Positions 325 to 40,393 of a stretch of 64,000 nucleotides of DNA are shown here, one piece after another. The position numbers and the translations under genes are program-made. The notes beneath the pieces were generated by a model. The model saw only the letters and a list, made by a program, of their open reading frames with translations. It had not been told where the DNA came from and made no database searches. Numbering within the stretch: position 1 is the first letter of the stretch; each line of letters opens with the position of its first letter. The stretch lies in the NCBI GenBank assembly GCA_024239035.1, contig JANBVK010000001.1, forward strand, positions 506,202 to 570,201, written 5' to 3'. This stretch comes from Patescibacteria group bacterium (GTDB taxonomy: Bacteria; Patescibacteriota; Minisyncoccia; UBA6257; GWB1-50-10).

Positions 325-540
325 AGGGCTTTGTATAAATTTTAGAGCTAACAGTGATGAAAATTTATGACTTCGACTGAGCTCAGCCGAATGTCCTACA
401 AAATCTTTATCCCCTCCTTTTCGCGCTTGCGCAAAAGAAGGGGGTGCACAAATTTATGATAAAATTTATTTCACCAAAGGCCCGCCCCATTAGATGTATA
501 AAGCTATCTAACGGGGTGAATAAATTTTAATAAATTTGGC
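325..540 (+). promoter_or_regulatory. Conserved pilus-gene leader module, copy A. It has an extended -10 (TGTATAAAT at 332-340) right after the pilM stop, AAAATTTAT blocks and TTTGGCATG at the start codon.
   Basis: Shares ordered sequence blocks with 1999-2210 and 7145-7280 (AGGGCTTTGTATAAATTTT, GATGAAAATTTAT, CAAAACCTTTATCC, AAATTTGGCATG). Confidence 0.5.
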
Positions 541-3954: not shown

Positions 3955-5028
3955 ATGATGGATTACAAGAAAAAATTAGATGAGTTGTTGCTTATCACCG
4001 CTCGTCAAAACGCCTCTGATCTTCACATAGCGGTTGGTCGCCGTCCGACTATCCGGATAGATAGTGTTCTCGTTCCTCTTGCTAAGGAAACTATTCTCAC
4101 TAAGGAGGATGCCGAAGGTTTAGTGCTTACTCTTTTGACAGAGGAACAAAAAAAAGCTTTCTCTCTGAAGAAACAAGTTGATTTTTCATACAGCCTTGAA
4201 GACAAAGCCCGATTCCGGGTTAATGTTTACATGCAGCGAGCTTTTATGGCCGCCGCACTTCGTTTAATTCCAGCTCAGATTAGAACGATTGAGGAACTGA
4301 ATCTACCACCGCTTATCCACGATTTCACTAGACTTAATCAGGGATTCATTTTAGTAGTTGGGCCGGCTGGTCACGGCAAGTCTACCACCTTAGCGGCTCT
4401 TCTTGATGAAATTAACCACAAACGGACAGACCATATCATTACCGTGGAAGACCCGATTGAGTATTTATTTTCACAGGACCGGTGCATTATCTCTCAGCGA
4501 GAAGTGGGACTTGATACCCTTTCTTTTGGTGATGCTCTTCGTTCGGTTTTACGTCAGGATCCAGACGTAATTATGATTGGTGAGGTTCGGGATCCGGAGA
4601 CAATGGCAACGGCTATGACGGCGGCTGAGACTGGCCATTTAGTGTTCTCCACCATGCACACGAATTCCGCCTCTCAAACAATTGACAGAATAATTGATAG
4701 TTTCCCGCCTAGTCAGCAGGGTCAGATTATTTCACAACTCGCATCAACACTTGTTGCCGTTGTCTCCGAGCGTTTGATTCCACGTGTTGGGGGTGGCAGG
4801 ATCCCAGCTACCGAGATTATGTTGGCCAACCCCGCCATCAGAAACCTTATTCGGGAGAAGAAAATTTATCAGATTGACTTGGTTATTGAAACGAGTGTTC
4901 AGGAGGGGATGTTGTCACTAAACCGTTCGCTCGTGAATTTAATAAAGAGCAAGGAAGTTTCCTTAGAACAAGCAAAGGGTTATTCCCTAAACCCGGCCGA
5001 GCTGGGAATATTACTTGAAAGAACATGA
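3955..5028 (+). CDS. pilT: Twitching-motility retraction ATPase PilT
   Basis: 357 aa. Walker A VVGPAGHGKSTTLAAL. PilT-type length with no N-terminal GspE domain. Confidence 0.85.
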   Translation: MMDYKKKLDELLLITARQNASDLHIAVGRRPTIRIDSVLVPLAKETILTKEDAEGLVLTLLTEEQKKAFSLKKQVDFSYSLEDKARFRVNVYMQRAFMAAALRLIPAQIRTIEELNLPPLIHDFTRLNQGFILVVGPAGHGKSTTLAALLDEINHKRTDHIITVEDPIEYLFSQDRCIISQREVGLDTLSFGDALRSVLRQDPDVIMIGEVRDPETMATAMTAAETGHLVFSTMHTNSASQTIDRIIDSFPPSQQGQIISQLASTLVAVVSERLIPRVGGGRIPATEIMLANPAIRNLIREKKIYQIDLVIETSVQEGMLSLNRSLVNLIKSKEVSLEQAKGYSLNPAELGILLERT

Positions 5029-6230
5029 AATTTGGCTATAAAGCTAGAACTAAAGAAGGAGAGCTTCAAATCGGCAATGTTGAAGCAGCTAATCGTGACA
5101 GCGCGTTAAGTATCCTTTTGGGGCACGGACTTTTTGTTTTGAGTTTGGAGCTGATTTTGGAAGTTCACTGGTACGCAAGAATACTTGATTTCTTCAAGCG
5201 GGTTAAGTCGACTCATCTGATGATTTTTACCCGGCAGTTTGCTACTCTTCTTGCTTCCCAAGTACCCCTTTCAGATAGTCTAGCCAACCTTTATCGTCAG
5301 ACCAGTCACCCGCTTCTTAAAGAAACTATTGCTGATATTGCCAATGACATTGATGCTGGCTTCTCCTTATCACAGTCTCTTGAGCGACACACGAGTATTT
5401 TCTCTGAGTTTTACGTCAATATGGTAAAGTCAGCTGAGGTAACTGGCCGCCTTTCCGAGGTGCTCGACTTCTTAGCAGATTATCTGGAAAAACAAGCTGC
5501 ACTGTTTGCTAAAGTTAAAAATGCACTAATTTATCCGATTTTTGTGATTGCACTTTTTATAGTGGTAGTGATTGTTATGGTTTCCGTAGTTTTACCTCAA
5601 ATCACTCCTATCTTTTCAGAGGCAAACATTGAATTACCTATTTTTACTCAAATTTTACTTAGCCTCGGTAACTTCATTTCTCGCTGGTGGTGGGCTGTTG
5701 GTATTGTACTTTTCGTGTTTCTTCTCATGATTATTGATTATTTCCAGACCGAAGAAGGAAAAGTGGTTTTTGATGAATTGAGTTTACGGGTACCTGTAAT
5801 CGGATTGCTTTTTCGGAAGCTCTACATTGCCCGTTTTGCCGAATCAAGCCGGGTGTTAATTAAGGGAGGCCTTACCATTCCCCAAGCAATTGAAATATCA
5901 TCTCATACCATCGGTAACACCGTTTACCAAGGATTACTCCACGAAGCATCAGGTCAGATCCGAAAAGGACAACTTCTTTCTAAAACACTTGAGGCGATGC
6001 CGGAGTTCCCACCGCTTGTTTCTCAGCTCATTAGCGTGGGGGAGACAACCGGTCGTTTGGAACAGCTTTTAGAAAAGGTTAGCGATTTTTATACTCGGGA
6101 GGTGGAAGACATGGTTAATAACTTAGTTACCCTTATCCAACCTGCGTTGATGGTTGTAATTGGCGGGATGGTGGCGCTCCTTTTTGCTTCAATTCTTCTG
6201 CCGCTCTATAATCTTTCGAGAGCTTTCTAA
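5025..6230 (+). CDS. pilC: Type IV pilus inner-membrane platform protein PilC (GspF family)
   Basis: 401 aa. Two GspF repeats and TM segments. ATGA overlap with pilT. Confidence 0.85.
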   Translation: MKFGYKARTKEGELQIGNVEAANRDSALSILLGHGLFVLSLELILEVHWYARILDFFKRVKSTHLMIFTRQFATLLASQVPLSDSLANLYRQTSHPLLKETIADIANDIDAGFSLSQSLERHTSIFSEFYVNMVKSAEVTGRLSEVLDFLADYLEKQAALFAKVKNALIYPIFVIALFIVVVIVMVSVVLPQITPIFSEANIELPIFTQILLSLGNFISRWWWAVGIVLFVFLLMIIDYFQTEEGKVVFDELSLRVPVIGLLFRKLYIARFAESSRVLIKGGLTIPQAIEISSHTIGNTVYQGLLHEASGQIRKGQLLSKTLEAMPEFPPLVSQLISVGETTGRLEQLLEKVSDFYTREVEDMVNNLVTLIQPALMVVIGGMVALLFASILLPLYNLSRAF

Positions 6231-24460: not shown

Positions 24461-24545
24461 CAAAAAAAGTTATCGGTATCGTAGTTTAGCTTTTCTTCTC
24501 CTCTTTTTTCTGTGTTTTTTCTTTGCTAGTTTTGATTTTTTATTC

Positions 24546-24670
24546 ATCCCGTTAGAAACAGGATGTGCTTGAAAAGCGCATCCGTGATATGCTGTCTAAC
24601 TCAACCCTTAATACATCTCTTAATGATTTGGCAGATGTAAGGTTTATAGTCTGATTGTTTCTAACGGGAT
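24546..24670. repeat. MITE-like element with perfect 15-bp terminal inverted repeats ATCCCGTTAGAAACA / TGTTTCTAACGGGAT and about 95 bp internal sequence
   Basis: The inverted repeat is seen directly. Its core matches the inverted repeats at 34537-34631 and 484-516. An internal GGATGTGC...GCGCATCC hairpin is present. Confidence 0.55.
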
Positions 24671-24689
24671 TCATAGGTATCTAAATTAT

Positions 24690-25349
24690 ATGGAAAAGGT
24701 GTCTTTAAAAACAAGTGACGGAGTAGAAATTATCGGAGATTACTATACCGGGTTAGGTAGTAGAGGCGTATTACTTCTGCATATGATGCCCACAACGCGC
24801 GTTTCGTGGCGGGGTTTTGCGCCAAAACTTGTCGAGCACGGTTACCACGCACTAGCCATTGATCTTCGTGGCCATGGCGAGTCTGCCAACGGACCGGAAA
24901 ATTATAAAAGTTTCTCTGACAAAGAACATCAAGCGAGCATTCACGACGTTGAATCCGGCGTACAGTTTTTAAAAGAAAAAGGAACCGTAGATGGGGAACT
25001 TGTGATAGTAGGTGCGTCTATCGGTGCAAATCTTGCATTATGGTATGCGTCGGATCATACAGAAATAAAACAGATTGTTTTACTCTCGCCGGGTCTGAAT
25101 TACAAAGGCATAGAAACCAAGCCGCTTATCAGGCGGCTGGAAGTCGGTCAAGGGGTGTTTTTTGCCTCTTCCGAAGACGACGAGCGCTCCAACGGAATAA
25201 ACGCTGACATGAATCGTGAACTTCATAAACTGATTCCTCAAGGAGTAGAGAAAAAACTTGTTATTTACCAAGCTGTTGGTCACGGCACGGATATGTTCGG
25301 TAAGGAGAAACCAGATCTTGAATCGGAGATTCTTGAATGGATAAAGTAA
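24690..25349 (+). CDS. Alpha/beta hydrolase (dienelactone-hydrolase-like)
   Basis: Nucleophile elbow VGASIGANL, HG...HG pattern, 219 aa. Confidence 0.6.
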   Translation: MEKVSLKTSDGVEIIGDYYTGLGSRGVLLLHMMPTTRVSWRGFAPKLVEHGYHALAIDLRGHGESANGPENYKSFSDKEHQASIHDVESGVQFLKEKGTVDGELVIVGASIGANLALWYASDHTEIKQIVLLSPGLNYKGIETKPLIRRLEVGQGVFFASSEDDERSNGINADMNRELHKLIPQGVEKKLVIYQAVGHGTDMFGKEKPDLESEILEWIK

Positions 25350-26049: not shown

Positions 26050-26604
26050 ATGAATATTACAAGAGAAGACGCTTGGGAACTGCTAAATGAATACGTAAAA
26101 TCAGAAAGTTTAATAAGGCACTGCTTGTCAGTGGAGGCGGCAATGAAAGCATACGCTAAAAAGTACAATGGAGATGTTGAGAAATGGGGTATTGCCGGAT
26201 TGCTTCATGATTTTGATTACGAGAAATTTCCCTCGTTAGAAAAGCATCCGTTTGAGGGCTCTAAGATTTTAAAAGAAAAAGAATATCCAGAAGACATTAT
26301 TCGGGCTATTTTAGGACATGGGAACCATACCGGAGTAGAGCGGGAAAGCCAGATGGCAAAGTGCCTCTTTGCGGTAGATGAACTCTGTGGTTTTATTGTT
26401 GCTCTTGCTCATATCCGGCCGGGGCACCTTGAGGGTATGGCTGCTAAATCCGTCAAGAAAAACCTGAAGAAAAAAGGTTTTGCTGCCGCAATAAGTAGGG
26501 AGGAGATTGAGCAGGGAATTTCAGAGTTGGGGATTGACAGAGAGAGCCATATTAATTTAGTTATTCAAGCCTTACAAGACATATCTAAGGAGCTCGGGTT
26601 TTAA
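26050..26604 (+). CDS. HD-domain phosphohydrolase
   Basis: H...HD pattern (GLLHDFDYEKF, ILGHGNHTG). 184 aa. Confidence 0.55.
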   Translation: MNITREDAWELLNEYVKSESLIRHCLSVEAAMKAYAKKYNGDVEKWGIAGLLHDFDYEKFPSLEKHPFEGSKILKEKEYPEDIIRAILGHGNHTGVERESQMAKCLFAVDELCGFIVALAHIRPGHLEGMAAKSVKKNLKKKGFAAAISREEIEQGISELGIDRESHINLVIQALQDISKELGF

Positions 26605-28603: not shown

Positions 28604-28664
28604 TTTTGGGGATATAGTAAAGTGGCATTACGCGGCATTTTCACCCCGTTAGACATAAACAAGA

Positions 28665-28735
28665 GGGCCTATGGTCTAGTGGTACGACACCACATTCGCA
28701 TTGTGGAGACGGGAGTTCGATTCTCCCTAGGTCCA
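28665..28735 (+). tRNA. tRNA-Ala (CGC)
   Basis: GGGCCTA with the G3:U70 identity pair, anticodon arm CCACA-TTCGCAT-TGTGG, T-arm GGGAG-TTCGATT-CTCCC. Preceded by a solo CCCCGTTAGACAT motif at 28644-28656. Confidence 0.8.
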
Positions 28736-28740
28736 CAAAC

Positions 28741-32571: not shown

Positions 32572-33783
32572 CTACCCAAACGTAAACGTAAAAGCGCGGA
32601 GGCCGGGGTTTTCAATAATGATTTCCAGGGTGTGTTCGCCGCTGCCTGCCGGGTCTTCGATAAGGCGATATAATCCGTCTTCTTTAACAAATACGGTTGT
32701 CTCACCGTTTTTAGTTTGTATATCAATCCCGGCAGCATCTCCCACGGGAACTCCGTCGCGGAGGATCCGAATATTTACTCCTTCTTCTGAACTTGCAACT
32801 ATAAAAACTTTCTGTGCCTGGTAGCGAAAGATAATTTTTGCACCGGCGCTTTTGTTCTCTGCGAATTCGCGTGTAAATTCCCAATCCCCGTCGAGATATA
32901 AAATATTAGTTTTTATGCCAATCGGCTTGGTAAGTGTTTGAATACCCTCTGTGCTGGATTTTCCATTTCCAAGGTAAAGATTTCGCCATGCGCCAAAGTA
33001 AATCTCCGGACTTCTGGGACTTAGAGCATCAACAGTTTCAACTCCCTCCGGTTTTGCAATTTCTTTTTCGATGCTGTCTTTGATTTCTAAGACTGTCATT
33101 CGTTCTTCCAAGAGTTCTTGAATTTTTCTCTCTGTCTCTTCGTATCTGCCTTCACCAATGTGGTCATAGACAATAAACCCGTCGATATCGATCAGATATT
33201 TCCTTGGCCAATAACGATTTTTATATGCATGCCAGGTTGAGAAATCATTGTCTAAAACCACGGGGTACTTTACGCCGAATTTTTCCACAGCAGCCTGGAC
33301 GTTTTCATACTTTTTTTCGAATTCAAACTCTGGGGTGTGCACGCCGATAATAGCTAATCCCTTGTCGCTGTATTTCTCATCCCACGCATTGAGGTACGGC
33401 AGGGTTCGTTGACAGTTAATGCAGCTGTATGTCCAGAAATCAACGAGGATTACTTTTTTTCCAATCAATTCTTTAATGGAAATTTTCGGTACATTAATAA
33501 ATCCGTCCGGAGTAGTTACCTCTTTTGCGGGCTCATATTGTTTCGCCTTTTCTTCGATGCGTTTTATAAAAAGAGATTTAACTTCCCCGGGCGTCGAAAT
33601 TCCAGCTCCACCAGACGGTAAGATTTCTTTATTTCTTTCGGTTACTATAGAACCTATGTCAATTTCTGCTTCTTTTAAATTTTCTGAGGTCGGTACCGGA
33701 AGCTTTTTTGATTGCAGGTAAAAGATCGCTCCTATAATTGCGATAACAGCCGTAATAAGAATAATTGTTTTTGGGTTTATCAT
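32572..33783 (-). CDS. Membrane-anchored thioredoxin-like thiol:disulfide oxidoreductase (TlpA/ResA-like, WTYSCINCQ) fused to a DipZ-C-terminal-like beta domain
   Basis: N-terminal TM helix, CxxC in a thioredoxin fold, and about 170 aa of C-terminal extension. Overlaps ccdA by 1 nt. Confidence 0.7.
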   Translation of the reverse strand: MINPKTIILITAVIAIIGAIFYLQSKKLPVPTSENLKEAEIDIGSIVTERNKEILPSGGAGISTPGEVKSLFIKRIEEKAKQYEPAKEVTTPDGFINVPKISIKELIGKKVILVDFWTYSCINCQRTLPYLNAWDEKYSDKGLAIIGVHTPEFEFEKKYENVQAAVEKFGVKYPVVLDNDFSTWHAYKNRYWPRKYLIDIDGFIVYDHIGEGRYEETERKIQELLEERMTVLEIKDSIEKEIAKPEGVETVDALSPRSPEIYFGAWRNLYLGNGKSSTEGIQTLTKPIGIKTNILYLDGDWEFTREFAENKSAGAKIIFRYQAQKVFIVASSEEGVNIRILRDGVPVGDAAGIDIQTKNGETTVFVKEDGLYRLIEDPAGSGEHTLEIIIENPGLRAFTFTFG

Positions 33784-34493
33784 TATCGTAAAAGAAAACG
33801 GTTTAAAAGTTCAAAGTTAGCGATGAGGTTTAAGCTTTGTGTGAAAACAAAGACGCCGAGAACAATAAGAACAACTCCAAAAGCAATATTGATGTATTTA
33901 AGTATATGCGCGTAGCGGTTGATTATGGTGGATGCCTGTGCGGCGAAGAACCCAACAACAAGAAAAGGGATACCAAGACCGAGTGAATAAGAAAGCAAGA
34001 GATAGAAGGTGATTCCGGGTTGCGTTGCTGCAAGACCTAGAATAGCCCCGAGGGCAGCGCCAACACACGGTGTCCATCCAGCACCAAAGGCGGAGCCGAA
34101 AACAAAAGATGTTATATACTTTGATTTAAATTGTTTTTTGACGGCAAATTTATGTTCTCTATCAAGGAAAGGGATTTTGATTAACCCAACGAGATATAGC
34201 CCAAAGAAAATAATAATAGCTCCGCCTATTCTTGAGAGCCAAATCAAGGCGTTGTATGCTACTGCCTCGAGAACGGTGTTTAGAAGAACTCCTAGGATTG
34301 CAAAGATTACAGAAAACCCTAAAACGAAGAACACGCTATTTAGAAACACATCTTTTCTTTTTGATCGAGAATCACTAAGTGACGTTCCTGACAAGTATGC
34401 TAGGAATCCGGGGATTATGGGCAGTACACAAGGAGAAAGAAAAGAAACTATCCCCGCAACGAAAGCAACAACAATTGTAATCTCTGCCATCAT
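33783..34493 (-). CDS. ccdA: Cytochrome c-type biogenesis / disulfide reductant transporter CcdA (DsbD core)
   Basis: Six TM helices. The two conserved Cys motifs LSPCVLPIIPGFLAY and GAGWTPCVGAAL. Confidence 0.85.
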   Translation of the reverse strand: MMAEITIVVAFVAGIVSFLSPCVLPIIPGFLAYLSGTSLSDSRSKRKDVFLNSVFFVLGFSVIFAILGVLLNTVLEAVAYNALIWLSRIGGAIIIFFGLYLVGLIKIPFLDREHKFAVKKQFKSKYITSFVFGSAFGAGWTPCVGAALGAILGLAATQPGITFYLLLSYSLGLGIPFLVVGFFAAQASTIINRYAHILKYINIAFGVVLIVLGVFVFTQSLNLIANFELLNRFLLR

Positions 34494-34531
34494 GACTCAC
34501 GTATAATATCACGCAGTGTTAGAAAAAAAAA

Positions 34532-34636
34532 GTTGACCCCGTTAGAAATCCGCCCTGCCAAGGGCATGGCGGCAGGCCCTCGACTGAGCTCGGTCGAAGT
34601 CCCACCTCGGGGCGGCTTATTTCTAACGGGGTTGAC
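34532..34636. repeat. MITE-like element with 12-13-bp terminal inverted repeats (C)CCCGTTAGAAAT / ATTTCTAACGGG(G) flanked by the direct 6-bp GTTGAC on both sides
   Basis: Inverted repeat and flanking direct repeat seen directly. The interior holds the TCGACTGAGCTCGGTCGA near-palindrome shared with the pilus leaders. Confidence 0.55.
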
Positions 34637-34724
34637 CCTCTCTGATATTTGAGTTAGTTTACCTACCAGCGGGAACCAAGACGGATTTCTAATTTACAAC
34701 CTAAAATGAATCGAGGGTAGGACA

Positions 34725-35672
34725 ATGAATGCAAGGAACTTTTTCAGATTGCTGGAGGCGCGATGGGCACAGGATCTTTTTGTGTGCGTGGGTTTGGACA
34801 GTGATTTAAGCAAGATCCCGGAAGCCGCCCAGGTTTCCGATAAAACCTATCCTGTGGGGCTGGATCCAACGGCAACCATCTTTGGATTCAACTCCGCCAT
34901 CGTGGATGCGACGAAGGATTTAGTTTGCGCATACAAACCGAACATCGCTTTCTACGAAGCGCATGGCGGTGCCGGTTGGCTCGCGCTCTACCAAACCGTC
35001 ACGTATATCCACGAGGTTGCGCCTGAAGTGCCGGTGATCTTGGATGCCAAGCGCGCCGATATCGGTAACACGAATAACGGCTATGTGCGCGCGTTCGAGC
35101 TTTTACAAGTCGATGCCATCACAGTGAACCCGTACTTGGGTGCCGAGGCGTTGCAGCCGTTCTTGGATCAGAAGGATAGGGGGATTATCGTCCTCTGTCG
35201 TACCTCTAATCCTGGTGCAGGCGAGTTTCAGGATATGGTTGTCTCTGTGAGCGAAGAGCAATTTGCTAATATCTCGCGGGGTCAGCCTGTCAGTGATTCC
35301 GAGTTCTCAATGCCGAGAACAATGCCGCTTTATCAGTATGTTGCATACCGAGTGGCGGCCCGTAGTACCGGCTGGAACAAGAACGGTAACTGTGCAATCG
35401 TCGTCGGGGCAACGTACCCCGGTGAACTTCGGGAAGTGCGCCAACAAATTGTCGGTGACATGCCGATTCTCATTCCGGGTATCGGAAAACAAGGCGGGGA
35501 TATCGAGAAAACCGTTGCCGCCGGCATTGACAGTCGGGGGCAGGGGATAATTGTCAACTCCTCGCGGGGGATTATCTTTGCATCCGGAGGGTCAGATTTT
35601 GCGGAAGCGGCTCGCAGGGAAACCGTTAAACTCAGCGACACAATTAACGATTGTCGTCAGAAAGGAGAGTGA
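34725..35672 (+). CDS. pyrF: Orotidine 5'-phosphate decarboxylase (long type 2 form)
   Basis: Motif ILDAKRADIGNT. 315 aa. Confidence 0.85.
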   Translation: MNARNFFRLLEARWAQDLFVCVGLDSDLSKIPEAAQVSDKTYPVGLDPTATIFGFNSAIVDATKDLVCAYKPNIAFYEAHGGAGWLALYQTVTYIHEVAPEVPVILDAKRADIGNTNNGYVRAFELLQVDAITVNPYLGAEALQPFLDQKDRGIIVLCRTSNPGAGEFQDMVVSVSEEQFANISRGQPVSDSEFSMPRTMPLYQYVAYRVAARSTGWNKNGNCAIVVGATYPGELREVRQQIVGDMPILIPGIGKQGGDIEKTVAAGIDSRGQGIIVNSSRGIIFASGGSDFAEAARRETVKLSDTINDCRQKGE

Positions 35673-40301: not shown

Positions 40302-40393
40302 GTATCGCGAGACGCTTTTGTGCCCGGCGGTGAGATCGTGACCGTGGTTTGCCTCGGTTGCGGTTCTACCGCCGGGCACATTTATTTTTATTT

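Follow-up and report, generated by a model that had tools for sequence, protein, structure and literature searches.

What kind of sequence lies at positions 34532-34636 of the 64-kb stretch of Patescibacteria DNA analysed here (the window, taken at its full length), where two copies of GTTGAC enclose a pair of perfect inverted repeats: an inserted mobile element, a structured RNA, or a site belonging to some other system? An initial annotation of the window had proposed a non-autonomous insertion of the MITE type (miniature inverted-repeat transposable element). This proposal gained support from the directly repeated flanks, from the presence and absence of the element among relatives, and from a coding partner with the same ends. 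The segment 34533-34635 is very probably a gene-less, MITE-like copy of a family of mobile-element DNA that has 13-bp ends and a short flanking duplication. These ends are common to the short form and to a longer form bearing a nuclease gene, and the flanks are directly repeated. That the nuclease drives the movement, with a life cycle at the start codons of host genes, is a more tentative proposal that could well prove wrong.

The locus consists of GTTGAC (34532-34537), CCCGTTAGAAAT (34538-34549), a GC-rich interior of 69 nt, ATTTCTAACGGG (34619-34630) and a second GTTGAC (34631-34636). Pairing of the arms reaches one base outside CCCG, where C34537 faces G34631. Between these outer ends (34537-34631) the element measures 95 bp, with perfect 13-nt arms and no open reading frame (ORF). 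The duplicated segment is more likely TTGA (4 bp) than the whole of GTTGAC (6 bp). Overall, the window contains two full copies, one short hairpin and one solo end, all four at the places first assigned to them or within one base (485-516 for the hairpin, formerly 484-516). The exact 9-mer core CCCGTTAGA occurred 6 times against 0.31 expected, a count that none of 100 shuffles reached. An 11-mer with 2 mismatches allowed was not enriched (15 found, 23.5 expected), and therefore only exact and near-exact copies count. A site with 1 mismatch at 26232, inside a coding region, was rejected as a chance match.

Whether these copies are insertions can be judged from orthologous sites. The second full copy, at 24546, lies between tRNA-Pro and a hydrolase gene starting at 24690, and we compared this site in the three closest relatives of the hydrolase, L207, L208 and L206. 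The element is missing from L207 (hydrolase identity 84%) and L208 (70%), where the gene follows tRNA-Pro after the shared T-rich spacer and one TTCAT only. In L206 (75%), an element stands at the orthologous place between the same flanks; its left arm differs by one substitution, and its subterminal hairpin is re-paired. At the 34532 site, GGGGTTGACCCTCTC... is preserved in the nearest relative, L123 (pyrF identity 78%), together with the entire pyrF leader (about 88% identity). L123 is without the element upstream of pyrF, and its sequence further upstream is unrelated; because L123 aligns only from there, the homology boundary falls at the right end of the 34532 element. The element is thus an insertion, present or absent at orthologous sites and inherited in one relative. 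The initial annotation had suggested such a comparison of empty and filled sites and had reasoned that sequence conserved at orthologous positions would mean a structured RNA; what we found instead was a polymorphic insertion.

The same comparison bears on whether the element could be a structured non-coding RNA or a cis-regulatory leader acting on pyrF or on the DsbD/CcdA-like gene across the spacer. The spacer is 231 bp long and separates the ccdA-like gene (minus strand, 33783-34493) from pyrF (plus strand, 34725-35672). The single-strand RNA fold is indeed very stable against shuffled controls, with z = -6.0 for the plus strand and -6.2 for the minus strand. A 16-nt stretch of the pyrF leader, CAAGACGGATTTCTAA (34677-34692), is moreover 88% complementary to 34542-34557 in the inner left end. 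However, both strands fold equally well, and so do the two full elements with DNA parameters (z = -5.8 and -6.2 against shuffled controls), which is the behaviour expected of DNA with an inverted repeat. The leader stretch predates the insertion, as it is conserved also in L123, which is without the element; the promoter-like region of pyrF is likewise conserved there. At gathering score, the only Rfam matches in the full window were nine tRNAs; relaxing the threshold to E up to 10 for 34480-34730 gave nothing for the spacer beyond a chance snoRNA match. Furthermore, the interiors of different copies are unrelated, and relative to each of the two genes the element lies upstream of the putative promoter box (TTGACC for pyrF, TG-TATTAT for the ccdA-like gene), a position in which neither inferred promoter would transcribe it. 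The pyrF promoter is placed here by its conservation in L123 alone, because a consensus promoter scan did not call TTGACC-17-TAGTTT. We therefore consider an RNA or leader function, which the initial annotation had kept as its alternative, very improbable. As an insertion, the 34532 copy would separate an A-tract from the TTGACC box, and the duplication would preserve that box. The copy itself probably has little or no function of its own.

How far does the family extend? We scanned one genome per species for CCCGTTAGAAA, 70-100 nt and TTTCTAACGGG, with perfect arms required; by our own estimate from the pattern and the size of the collection, about 2 chance matches are expected. The same arms were found in at least 120 stretches of species-representative genomes from many phyla. 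Hosts among the matches listed include Patescibacteria of the candidate phyla radiation (CPR, with Saccharibacteria), Deltaproteobacteria, Planctomycetota, Omnitrophota, Nitrospirae and others. A family with CCCGTTAGA-type ends had therefore been correctly recognised from the window, but it is not a small one. Many 8-kb loci held several copies, and short forms with loops of 3-10 nt, like the copy at 485-516, occur in other genomes. A hairpin at the subterminal position seen in the 34532 element is present in the 24546 element and in many family members. Viral contigs contained no short and no complete form, which gives no support to a phage vector. Three loci of genome DX4.bin27 (L009 at 2167-2258 and 4942-5033, L007 and L036) hold identical 92-bp elements with identical extended flanks. 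The 92-bp element occurs there at least four times, twice at contig ends, and two inverted copies bracket a gene for a lipoprotein-like protein of 686 amino acids (aa); these copies may belong to a larger repeat or form a composite arrangement.

Since the flanks were not part of the search pattern, they give unbiased statistics on the insertion site. The base outside CCCG was complementary to the base outside CGGG in 115 of 120 elements (C-G in 66, T-A in 49). Beyond the arms, the flanks are direct repeats with the consensus R-T-N-N-A-Y: among 121 pairs of flanking 6-mers, 77 had a directly repeated central dinucleotide and 3 an inverted one, 3 fitted both descriptions and 38 fitted neither. 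Five loci (L010, L012, L046, L079 and L104) have ATGAAC upstream and GTGAAA downstream. This pattern is explained by a 4-bp duplication with 13-bp ends, in which the first downstream base is the element's own and pairs with the element's first base. The best model for the family is therefore a 13-bp end (YCCCGTTAGAAAT; Y-CCCGTTAGAAAT) plus a 4-bp duplication TNNA, and the consensus of the ends is Y-CCCGTTAGA[A/G]AT ... AT[T/C]TCTAACGGG-R. A duplication of 4 bp is most likely, with 2 bp or 6 bp as less probable lengths. Where ends of 12-13 bp and a 6-bp duplication had been read at 34532, the repeats are real, the ends are 13 bp, and the duplication is probably the 4-bp TNNA. The flanking 6-mers cannot be read as -35 boxes or start codons in general, as this holds for subsets only.

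Shared arms with varying interiors are also what one might expect of a site-specific recombination structure, either an integron attC-like site or an invertible segment, as in regulons served by one invertase. The arm sequences GTTAGAA and TTCTAAC do resemble the attC core sites GTTRRRY and RYYYAAC. In integron attC sites, RYYYAAC stands on the 5' side of the stem and GTTRRRY on the 3' side. Here the order of the boxes is the reverse (GTTAGAA 5', TTCTAAC 3') on both strands, the arms being palindromic. In addition, inversion is impossible for loops of 3-10 nt, the flanks are repeated directly, and the only protein found between arms is a GIY-YIG nuclease, with no tyrosine or serine recombinase. 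Such a structure has almost no probability in our judgement.

We then asked which protein could go with these ends. The initial annotation had looked to a cognate transposase of the IS630/Tc1 or IS200/IS605 type; in 0.93 Mb, neither a transposase nor a convincing long element turned up between ends that face each other. A MITE of IS630/Tc1 type was rejected, as the flanks are R-T-N-N-A-Y direct repeats and not TA. An origin from IS200/IS605 was rejected on account of the terminal inverted repeats, the directly repeated flanks and the GIY-YIG partner of the present family. The inverted copies in L009 were likewise rejected as a transposase-bearing element, the enclosed gene being lipoprotein-like. 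The partner is instead a single-domain GIY-YIG nuclease of 86 aa. It was found in two long elements of 270 bp, L037 (Omnitrophota) and L070 (Parcubacteria), which carry a protein of 84-89 aa between the arms with a GIY-YIG domain (Pfam PF01541, E 6e-14 and 4e-16).

The protein database contained 1746 relatives of this arm-enclosed protein at E <= 1e-5, mostly of 86 aa. In the 86-aa protein of the complete form, PF01541 is the only domain. The catalytic residues (Tyr, Tyr, Arg, His, Glu and Asn) are invariant in the aligned relatives. All 24 of 24 aligned relatives end in ...KNRLKRFLSLTG, with the stop directly after in most and a few extra residues in seven. Some relatives begin with MNPVRD or MSPVRE, which is the translated left arm, and one runs on as ...SLTGVNPVRD into a neighbouring element. 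A profile search of clusters at 50% identity gave 2770 representatives at E <= 1e-10; even distant members finish with ...YLTG, which preserves the CTAACGGG core. Among solved structures, UPF0213 proteins come closest in sequence (1zg2, E 7.5e-11), and NCBIfam gave a weak match to a group I intron endonuclease model (E 6e-5, below the cut-off).

At the DNA level, a scan of metagenomes yielded 80 loci; in 78 the gene is enclosed by Y-CCCGTTAGAGAT ... ATCTCTAACGGG-R, and most of these elements are 273-278 bp long. The complete form encloses a single 86-aa GIY-YIG gene in about 277 bp. Its closing pair is complementary in 73 of 75 complete elements, and a 10-bp palindrome, GAAGCGCTTC, lies directly inside the right end. 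The right end encodes the last residues of the nuclease, S-L-T-G, and the duplicated target supplies the stop TGA. The third positions of the last four codons are 76-100% conserved, compared with about 60% upstream, which shows a constraint on the DNA itself. Short gene-less copies, some with AGAAAT arms as in the window, were present in 19 of the 80 complete-form loci.

Two observations on nuclease genes stand apart from this pattern. In one subfamily of the complete elements (L126, L129, L131, L132, L142, L174 and L196), the left flank is always GG(A/G)TTGGAC, and the right flanks vary and are not direct repeats of it. The left end of this subfamily may be longer, or its members may prefer a target that they do not duplicate. 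L003 contains, at 4340-4710 on the minus strand, another small GIY-YIG gene of a different kind (about 75 codons), flanked by a direct 22-bp duplication, CTACCGGATGAGCTATGGGCCC. This sequence is the reverse complement of the 5' half of a tRNA, there are no CCCGTTAGA arms at the place, and the gene appears to have been inserted into or beside a tRNA gene.

Where do the elements sit? Of 122 elements of the short form, 46 (about 40%) have an ORF of 100 codons or more that begins with the base next to the right arm, and 71 have one that begins within 25 nt of the arm. The upstream flank of these start-codon copies is usually also ATGAAT or ATGAGT, which means that the start codon is duplicated, and the last base of the element (A or G) rebuilds ATG or GTG. 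Many of the sites have a -10-like box 6-9 nt before the first ATG, and we infer that these genes are of the leaderless type. In L015 and L087, two tandem elements separate a Shine-Dalgarno sequence with ATG from the rest of the gene. Housekeeping genes unrelated to one another follow the elements (by inspection, lysS-, ppa-, ftsK-, ftsW-, topA-, uvrD- and clpP-like), and the element family is therefore not a gene-specific regulator. Neither full copy in the window stands on a start codon: one lies 21 nt before the ATG of the hydrolase and the other at the TTGACC box upstream of pyrF.

The complete form shows the same preference. A host ORF directly after the right end had the same orientation in 17 of 75 complete elements and the opposite orientation in 1. 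In the 12 cases with a duplicated upstream start codon, the host ATG was in frame with the nuclease in 9, and the stop TGA of the nuclease overlaps the rebuilt ATG of the host (ATGA). L184 keeps only the host ATG, that of the nuclease having been lost. The start codon of the nuclease in L200 holds a nested short copy, through which reading continues in frame.

The interiors of the short copies raise the question of how these copies arise. By interior, 119 of 173 elements were without a similar partner, and the interiors are mostly unrelated. One reading is that the short copies, including 34532-34636, are dead relics of complete elements whose interior was lost or replaced in place. Largely unique interiors, even within one genome, and the forms with loops of 3-10 nt would fit such decay, as would the right-end signature (CCT[A/G]TTTCTAACGGG) of short copies, which lies beside a host gene in 12 against 3 cases, in the orientation of the complete elements. 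Against this, there are interior subfamilies, a 13-member cluster centred on Deltaproteobacteria and an 8-member cluster in CPR genomes, which recur in different species and gene contexts. Eight members of the former, from different species, were compared by their flanks, and their surroundings were essentially non-syntenic. By tblastn, no resemblance to the nuclease gene was seen in any interior examined, and the short copy nested in L200 requires a separate insertion. Taken together, we regard the relic reading as rather unlikely.

For the copies as mobile DNA, we propose the following mechanism. The 86-aa nuclease would recognise the ends and make the breaks that move the complete form and, in trans, the gene-less copies. 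The ends would fold as a single-stranded hairpin with an adjacent subterminal hairpin (34550-34572 and 24561-24583 in the window copies, GAAGCGCTTC in the complete form), as described for Ssn nucleases. A 4-nt stagger at TNNA would yield the duplication, and host repair or ligation would complete the insertion. The joining is assigned to host functions because GIY-YIG enzymes are hydrolytic nucleases, which are not known to transfer strands or to ligate. More speculatively, copies at start codons might use the promoter and ATG of the host gene for the nuclease and hand translation back through the stop-start overlap (ATGA). Insertion at a start codon duplicates TGAA, and the last base of the element, A or G, rebuilds ATG or GTG.

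Several points weigh against this account, some touching the family and others the individual sites. The requirement for perfect arms in the genome scan means that arm conservation is overestimated. Interiors differ even between neighbouring copies in one genome, unlike in a classical MITE burst, and this could reflect decay in situ rather than transposition of short copies. A perfect 4-bp flanking repeat was found in only 23 of 75 complete elements, TGAA and TAAA being commonest. The nuclease alone cannot explain integration, because its enzyme class is hydrolytic, and tblastn found no nuclease gene within the window. The 34532 copy and L123 can be aligned on the right flank only, so this is not a two-sided empty site. 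Lastly, the empty alleles of L207 and L208 are not textbook exact empty sites, as they have 6 extra bases at the junction (GTTTAT or GTTTAC). They read ATTCAT-GTTTAT (L207, 107-125) and GTTCAT-GTTTAC (L208, about 200-222), with a second R-T-N-N-A-Y 6-mer where the filled alleles have the element and then ATTCAT. The extra six bases could be an excision footprint, in the form of a second repeat copy that has since diverged, or they could stem from an indel of other origin.

If the proposed mechanism is correct, the family, at about 275 bp and with a GIY-YIG nuclease of 86 aa as sole protein, would rank as the smallest self-sufficient DNA transposon seen so far. It would live in the first codons of host genes that are often leaderless, and the hairpins of the window would be its gene-less passengers. 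We hold this only provisionally and below the point of conviction. The known transposase chemistries would then gain a nuclease-only class, in which an enzyme of 86 residues drives a mobile element from CPR bacteria to Deltaproteobacteria and Planctomycetes, and Ssn-type nucleases would gain a selfish, transposon-like origin and a testable life cycle. It would also become clear how an element too small for its own promoter or ribosome-binding site is expressed while essential genes such as lysS, ftsK, topA and clpP are spared, and the start-codon insertions would bear on how minimal genomes tolerate parasites. For annotation, duplicated start codons and N-terminal extensions of the type MNPVR... 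in carrier genomes would be insertion artefacts. The ends may, in that case, define new sequence-specific pairs of single-strand nuclease and site. The family is apparently undescribed: in the literature searched, whose coverage was incomplete, we found no description of these ends or of a GIY-YIG element with inverted ends and duplications, and only the paper on Ssn nucleases was relevant.

The features of the four window copies are collected in Table 1.

Table 1. Positions of the element copies in the window and of their parts.
Feature	Position	Strand	Remarks
Left flanking direct repeat, TTGA	34533-34536		Within GTTGAC 34532-34537; from sequence
Left terminal inverted repeat, 13 nt, C+CCCGTTAGAAAT	34537-34549		C34537 pairs with G34631
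Subterminal GC-rich hairpin, CCGCC-C-TGCC AAG GGCA-T-GGCGG	34550-34572		Directly inside left end; from single-strand DNA and RNA folds
Remaining GC-rich interior, non-coding	34573-34618		Without ORF, without Rfam match
Near-palindrome TCGACTGAGCTCGGTCGA in interior	34580-34597		Other occurrences at 372-391 and 2133-2152
Right terminal inverted repeat, ATTTCTAACGGG+G	34619-34631		From sequence
Right direct repeat, TTGA	34632-34635		With C34636 and C34637 gives TTGACC, conserved upstream of pyrF in relative L123
Second full element, arms ATCCCGTTAGAAACA / TGTTTCTAACGGGAT	24546-24670		Arms perfect; ATTCAT flanks at 24542-24547 and 24669-24674
Second full element, 4-bp model	24543-24673		TTCA at 24543-24546 and 24670-24673
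Left end of second element, T+CCCGTTAGAAACA	24547-24560		
Right end of second element, TGTTTCTAACGGG+A	24656-24669		
Interior of second element	24561-24583 (hairpin)		Subterminal hairpin, then AT-rich stretch
Short hairpin, CCCCATTAGAT-N10-ATCTAACGGGG	485-516		11-nt arms, 10-nt loop, one G-to-A difference in left arm
Solo left end, TTCA+C+CCCGTTAGACAT	28640-28656	+	Right partner absent

The right arm of the short hairpin ends 24 nt before an ATG at 541, and the solo arm CCCCGTTAGACAT (28644-28656) ends 8 nt before tRNA-Ala(CGC) at 28665-28736. In L065 (Bdellovibrionales, 5058-5165), a complete pair of arms encloses a whole tRNA-Ala(CGC) gene. With the solo arm of the window beside a gene for the same tRNA, this suggests that the arms may sometimes carry a tRNA gene as cargo. 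Two spacers of the pilus operon in the window (325-540 and 1999-2210) both open with AAGGGCTTTGTATAAATTTT and have a module in common, which contains the near-palindrome TTCGACTGAGCTCAGCCGAA as well as TGTCCTACAA and is oriented oppositely at 370-400 and at 2120-2153. The second of these spacers is bounded by a perfect 14-nt inverted repeat (2005-2018 and 2190-2203), and the near-palindrome is also found at 34580-34597 inside the 34532 element. This shared module may be a second small repeat family of the genome. A 29-nt GC-rich inverted repeat with a 4-nt loop and 76% complementarity, the second longest in the window, lies at 40319-40380 and is unrelated in sequence to the CCCGTTAGA arms.

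How does the family compare with known systems? As a MITE, the 34532 copy is short and non-coding, it has terminal inverted repeats between directly repeated flanks, and a protein-coding element has the same ends; insertion polymorphism was observed for the 24546 copy (L207 and L208 empty, L206 filled). The complete form may be autonomous through its nuclease. Hairpin-forming MITEs of bacteria include the Correia elements of Neisseria, the enterobacterial ERIC and the pneumococcal RUP sequences. Like these, the present short copies are non-coding elements of the order of 100-150 bp with terminal inverted repeats and a short target duplication, in intergenic positions near gene starts. The Correia, ERIC and RUP families are confined to a genus or family and derive from insertion sequences with DDE transposases. 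By contrast, members of the present family occur in many phyla, their interiors are for the most part unrelated, and their ends are also those of a nuclease-only element. With the GIY-YIG homing endonucleases, free-standing or intron-borne, such as I-TevI and the Seg proteins, the complete form has in common the catalytic domain and the character of a selfish element spreading by cutting DNA. Homing enzymes of this class bind DNA through a domain of its own, and recombination brings them into a single cognate allele, whereas the protein found here is a bare 86-aa domain in an element with its own inverted ends at many unrelated sites.

Elements of the IS200/IS605 group encode HUH tyrosine transposases that act through covalent intermediates, and they have separate subterminal hairpins, no terminal inverted repeats and no target duplication. 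The present family differs in its terminal inverted repeats, its directly repeated flanks and its hydrolytic GIY-YIG enzyme. It resembles IS200/IS605 and the REP/RAYT systems (discussed in PMC11893778) in that a small enzyme is proposed to act on single-stranded end hairpins and that short palindromic derivatives spread.

The closest description is that of the Ssn nucleases and their NTS/SRM hairpin repeats (Chenal et al., Nat Commun 2025, PMC11893778). Ssn proteins are single-domain GIY-YIG nucleases of 94 aa that cut only single-stranded DNA next to the NTS/SRM hairpin repeat, and the authors noted that the layout of repeat, gene and repeat resembles an insertion sequence and raised domestication as a hypothesis (PMC11893778). 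The likeness lies in the very small single-domain enzyme (94 aa in Ssn, 86 aa in the complete form here), in a gene bracketed by hairpin-forming inverted repeats, and in repeats that are scattered, mostly outside genes and near gene ends. Two differences concern the architecture: the two ends here are halves of one long stem, while Ssn has two complete hairpins, and the right end here belongs to the coding sequence (SLTG). The Ssn paper makes no mention of flanking duplications, start-codon insertion, an in-frame host ATG, Patescibacteria or Omnitrophota (PMC11893778). This comparison was made through the published SRM motif and the descriptions in the paper; as a regular expression on both strands, the motif (HGTCWY..YYVSBRH..WNVSBRG..RNCYNB) occurred in 0 of 78 elements, each with 100 nt on either side, and 0 times in the window.

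The likeness suggests a further reading, in which the arms would be cleavage or recognition sites of a domesticated Ssn-type system that modulates natural transformation and is kept for the benefit of the host. By analogy with NTS and SsnA of Neisseria, the nuclease would cut incoming or replicating single-stranded DNA at the hairpins. Ssn genes, too, encode a single domain of about 94 aa and are flanked by hairpin repeats that number hundreds of copies and rarely lie within genes (PMC11893778). The window holds a type IV pilus / competence-like operon with the short hairpin 485-516 inside it, and the arms are intact across very diverse lineages. Apart from the missing SRM motif, the directly repeated flanks, the tandem and nested copies, the duplication of start codons and the presence and absence of copies are signatures of insertion, and a role as host-maintained sites of this kind seems to us distinctly improbable. 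A mobile origin and a use by the host are not exclusive, and the two can coexist in a family whose short copies, like that at 34532-34636, share their ends with a nuclease gene.

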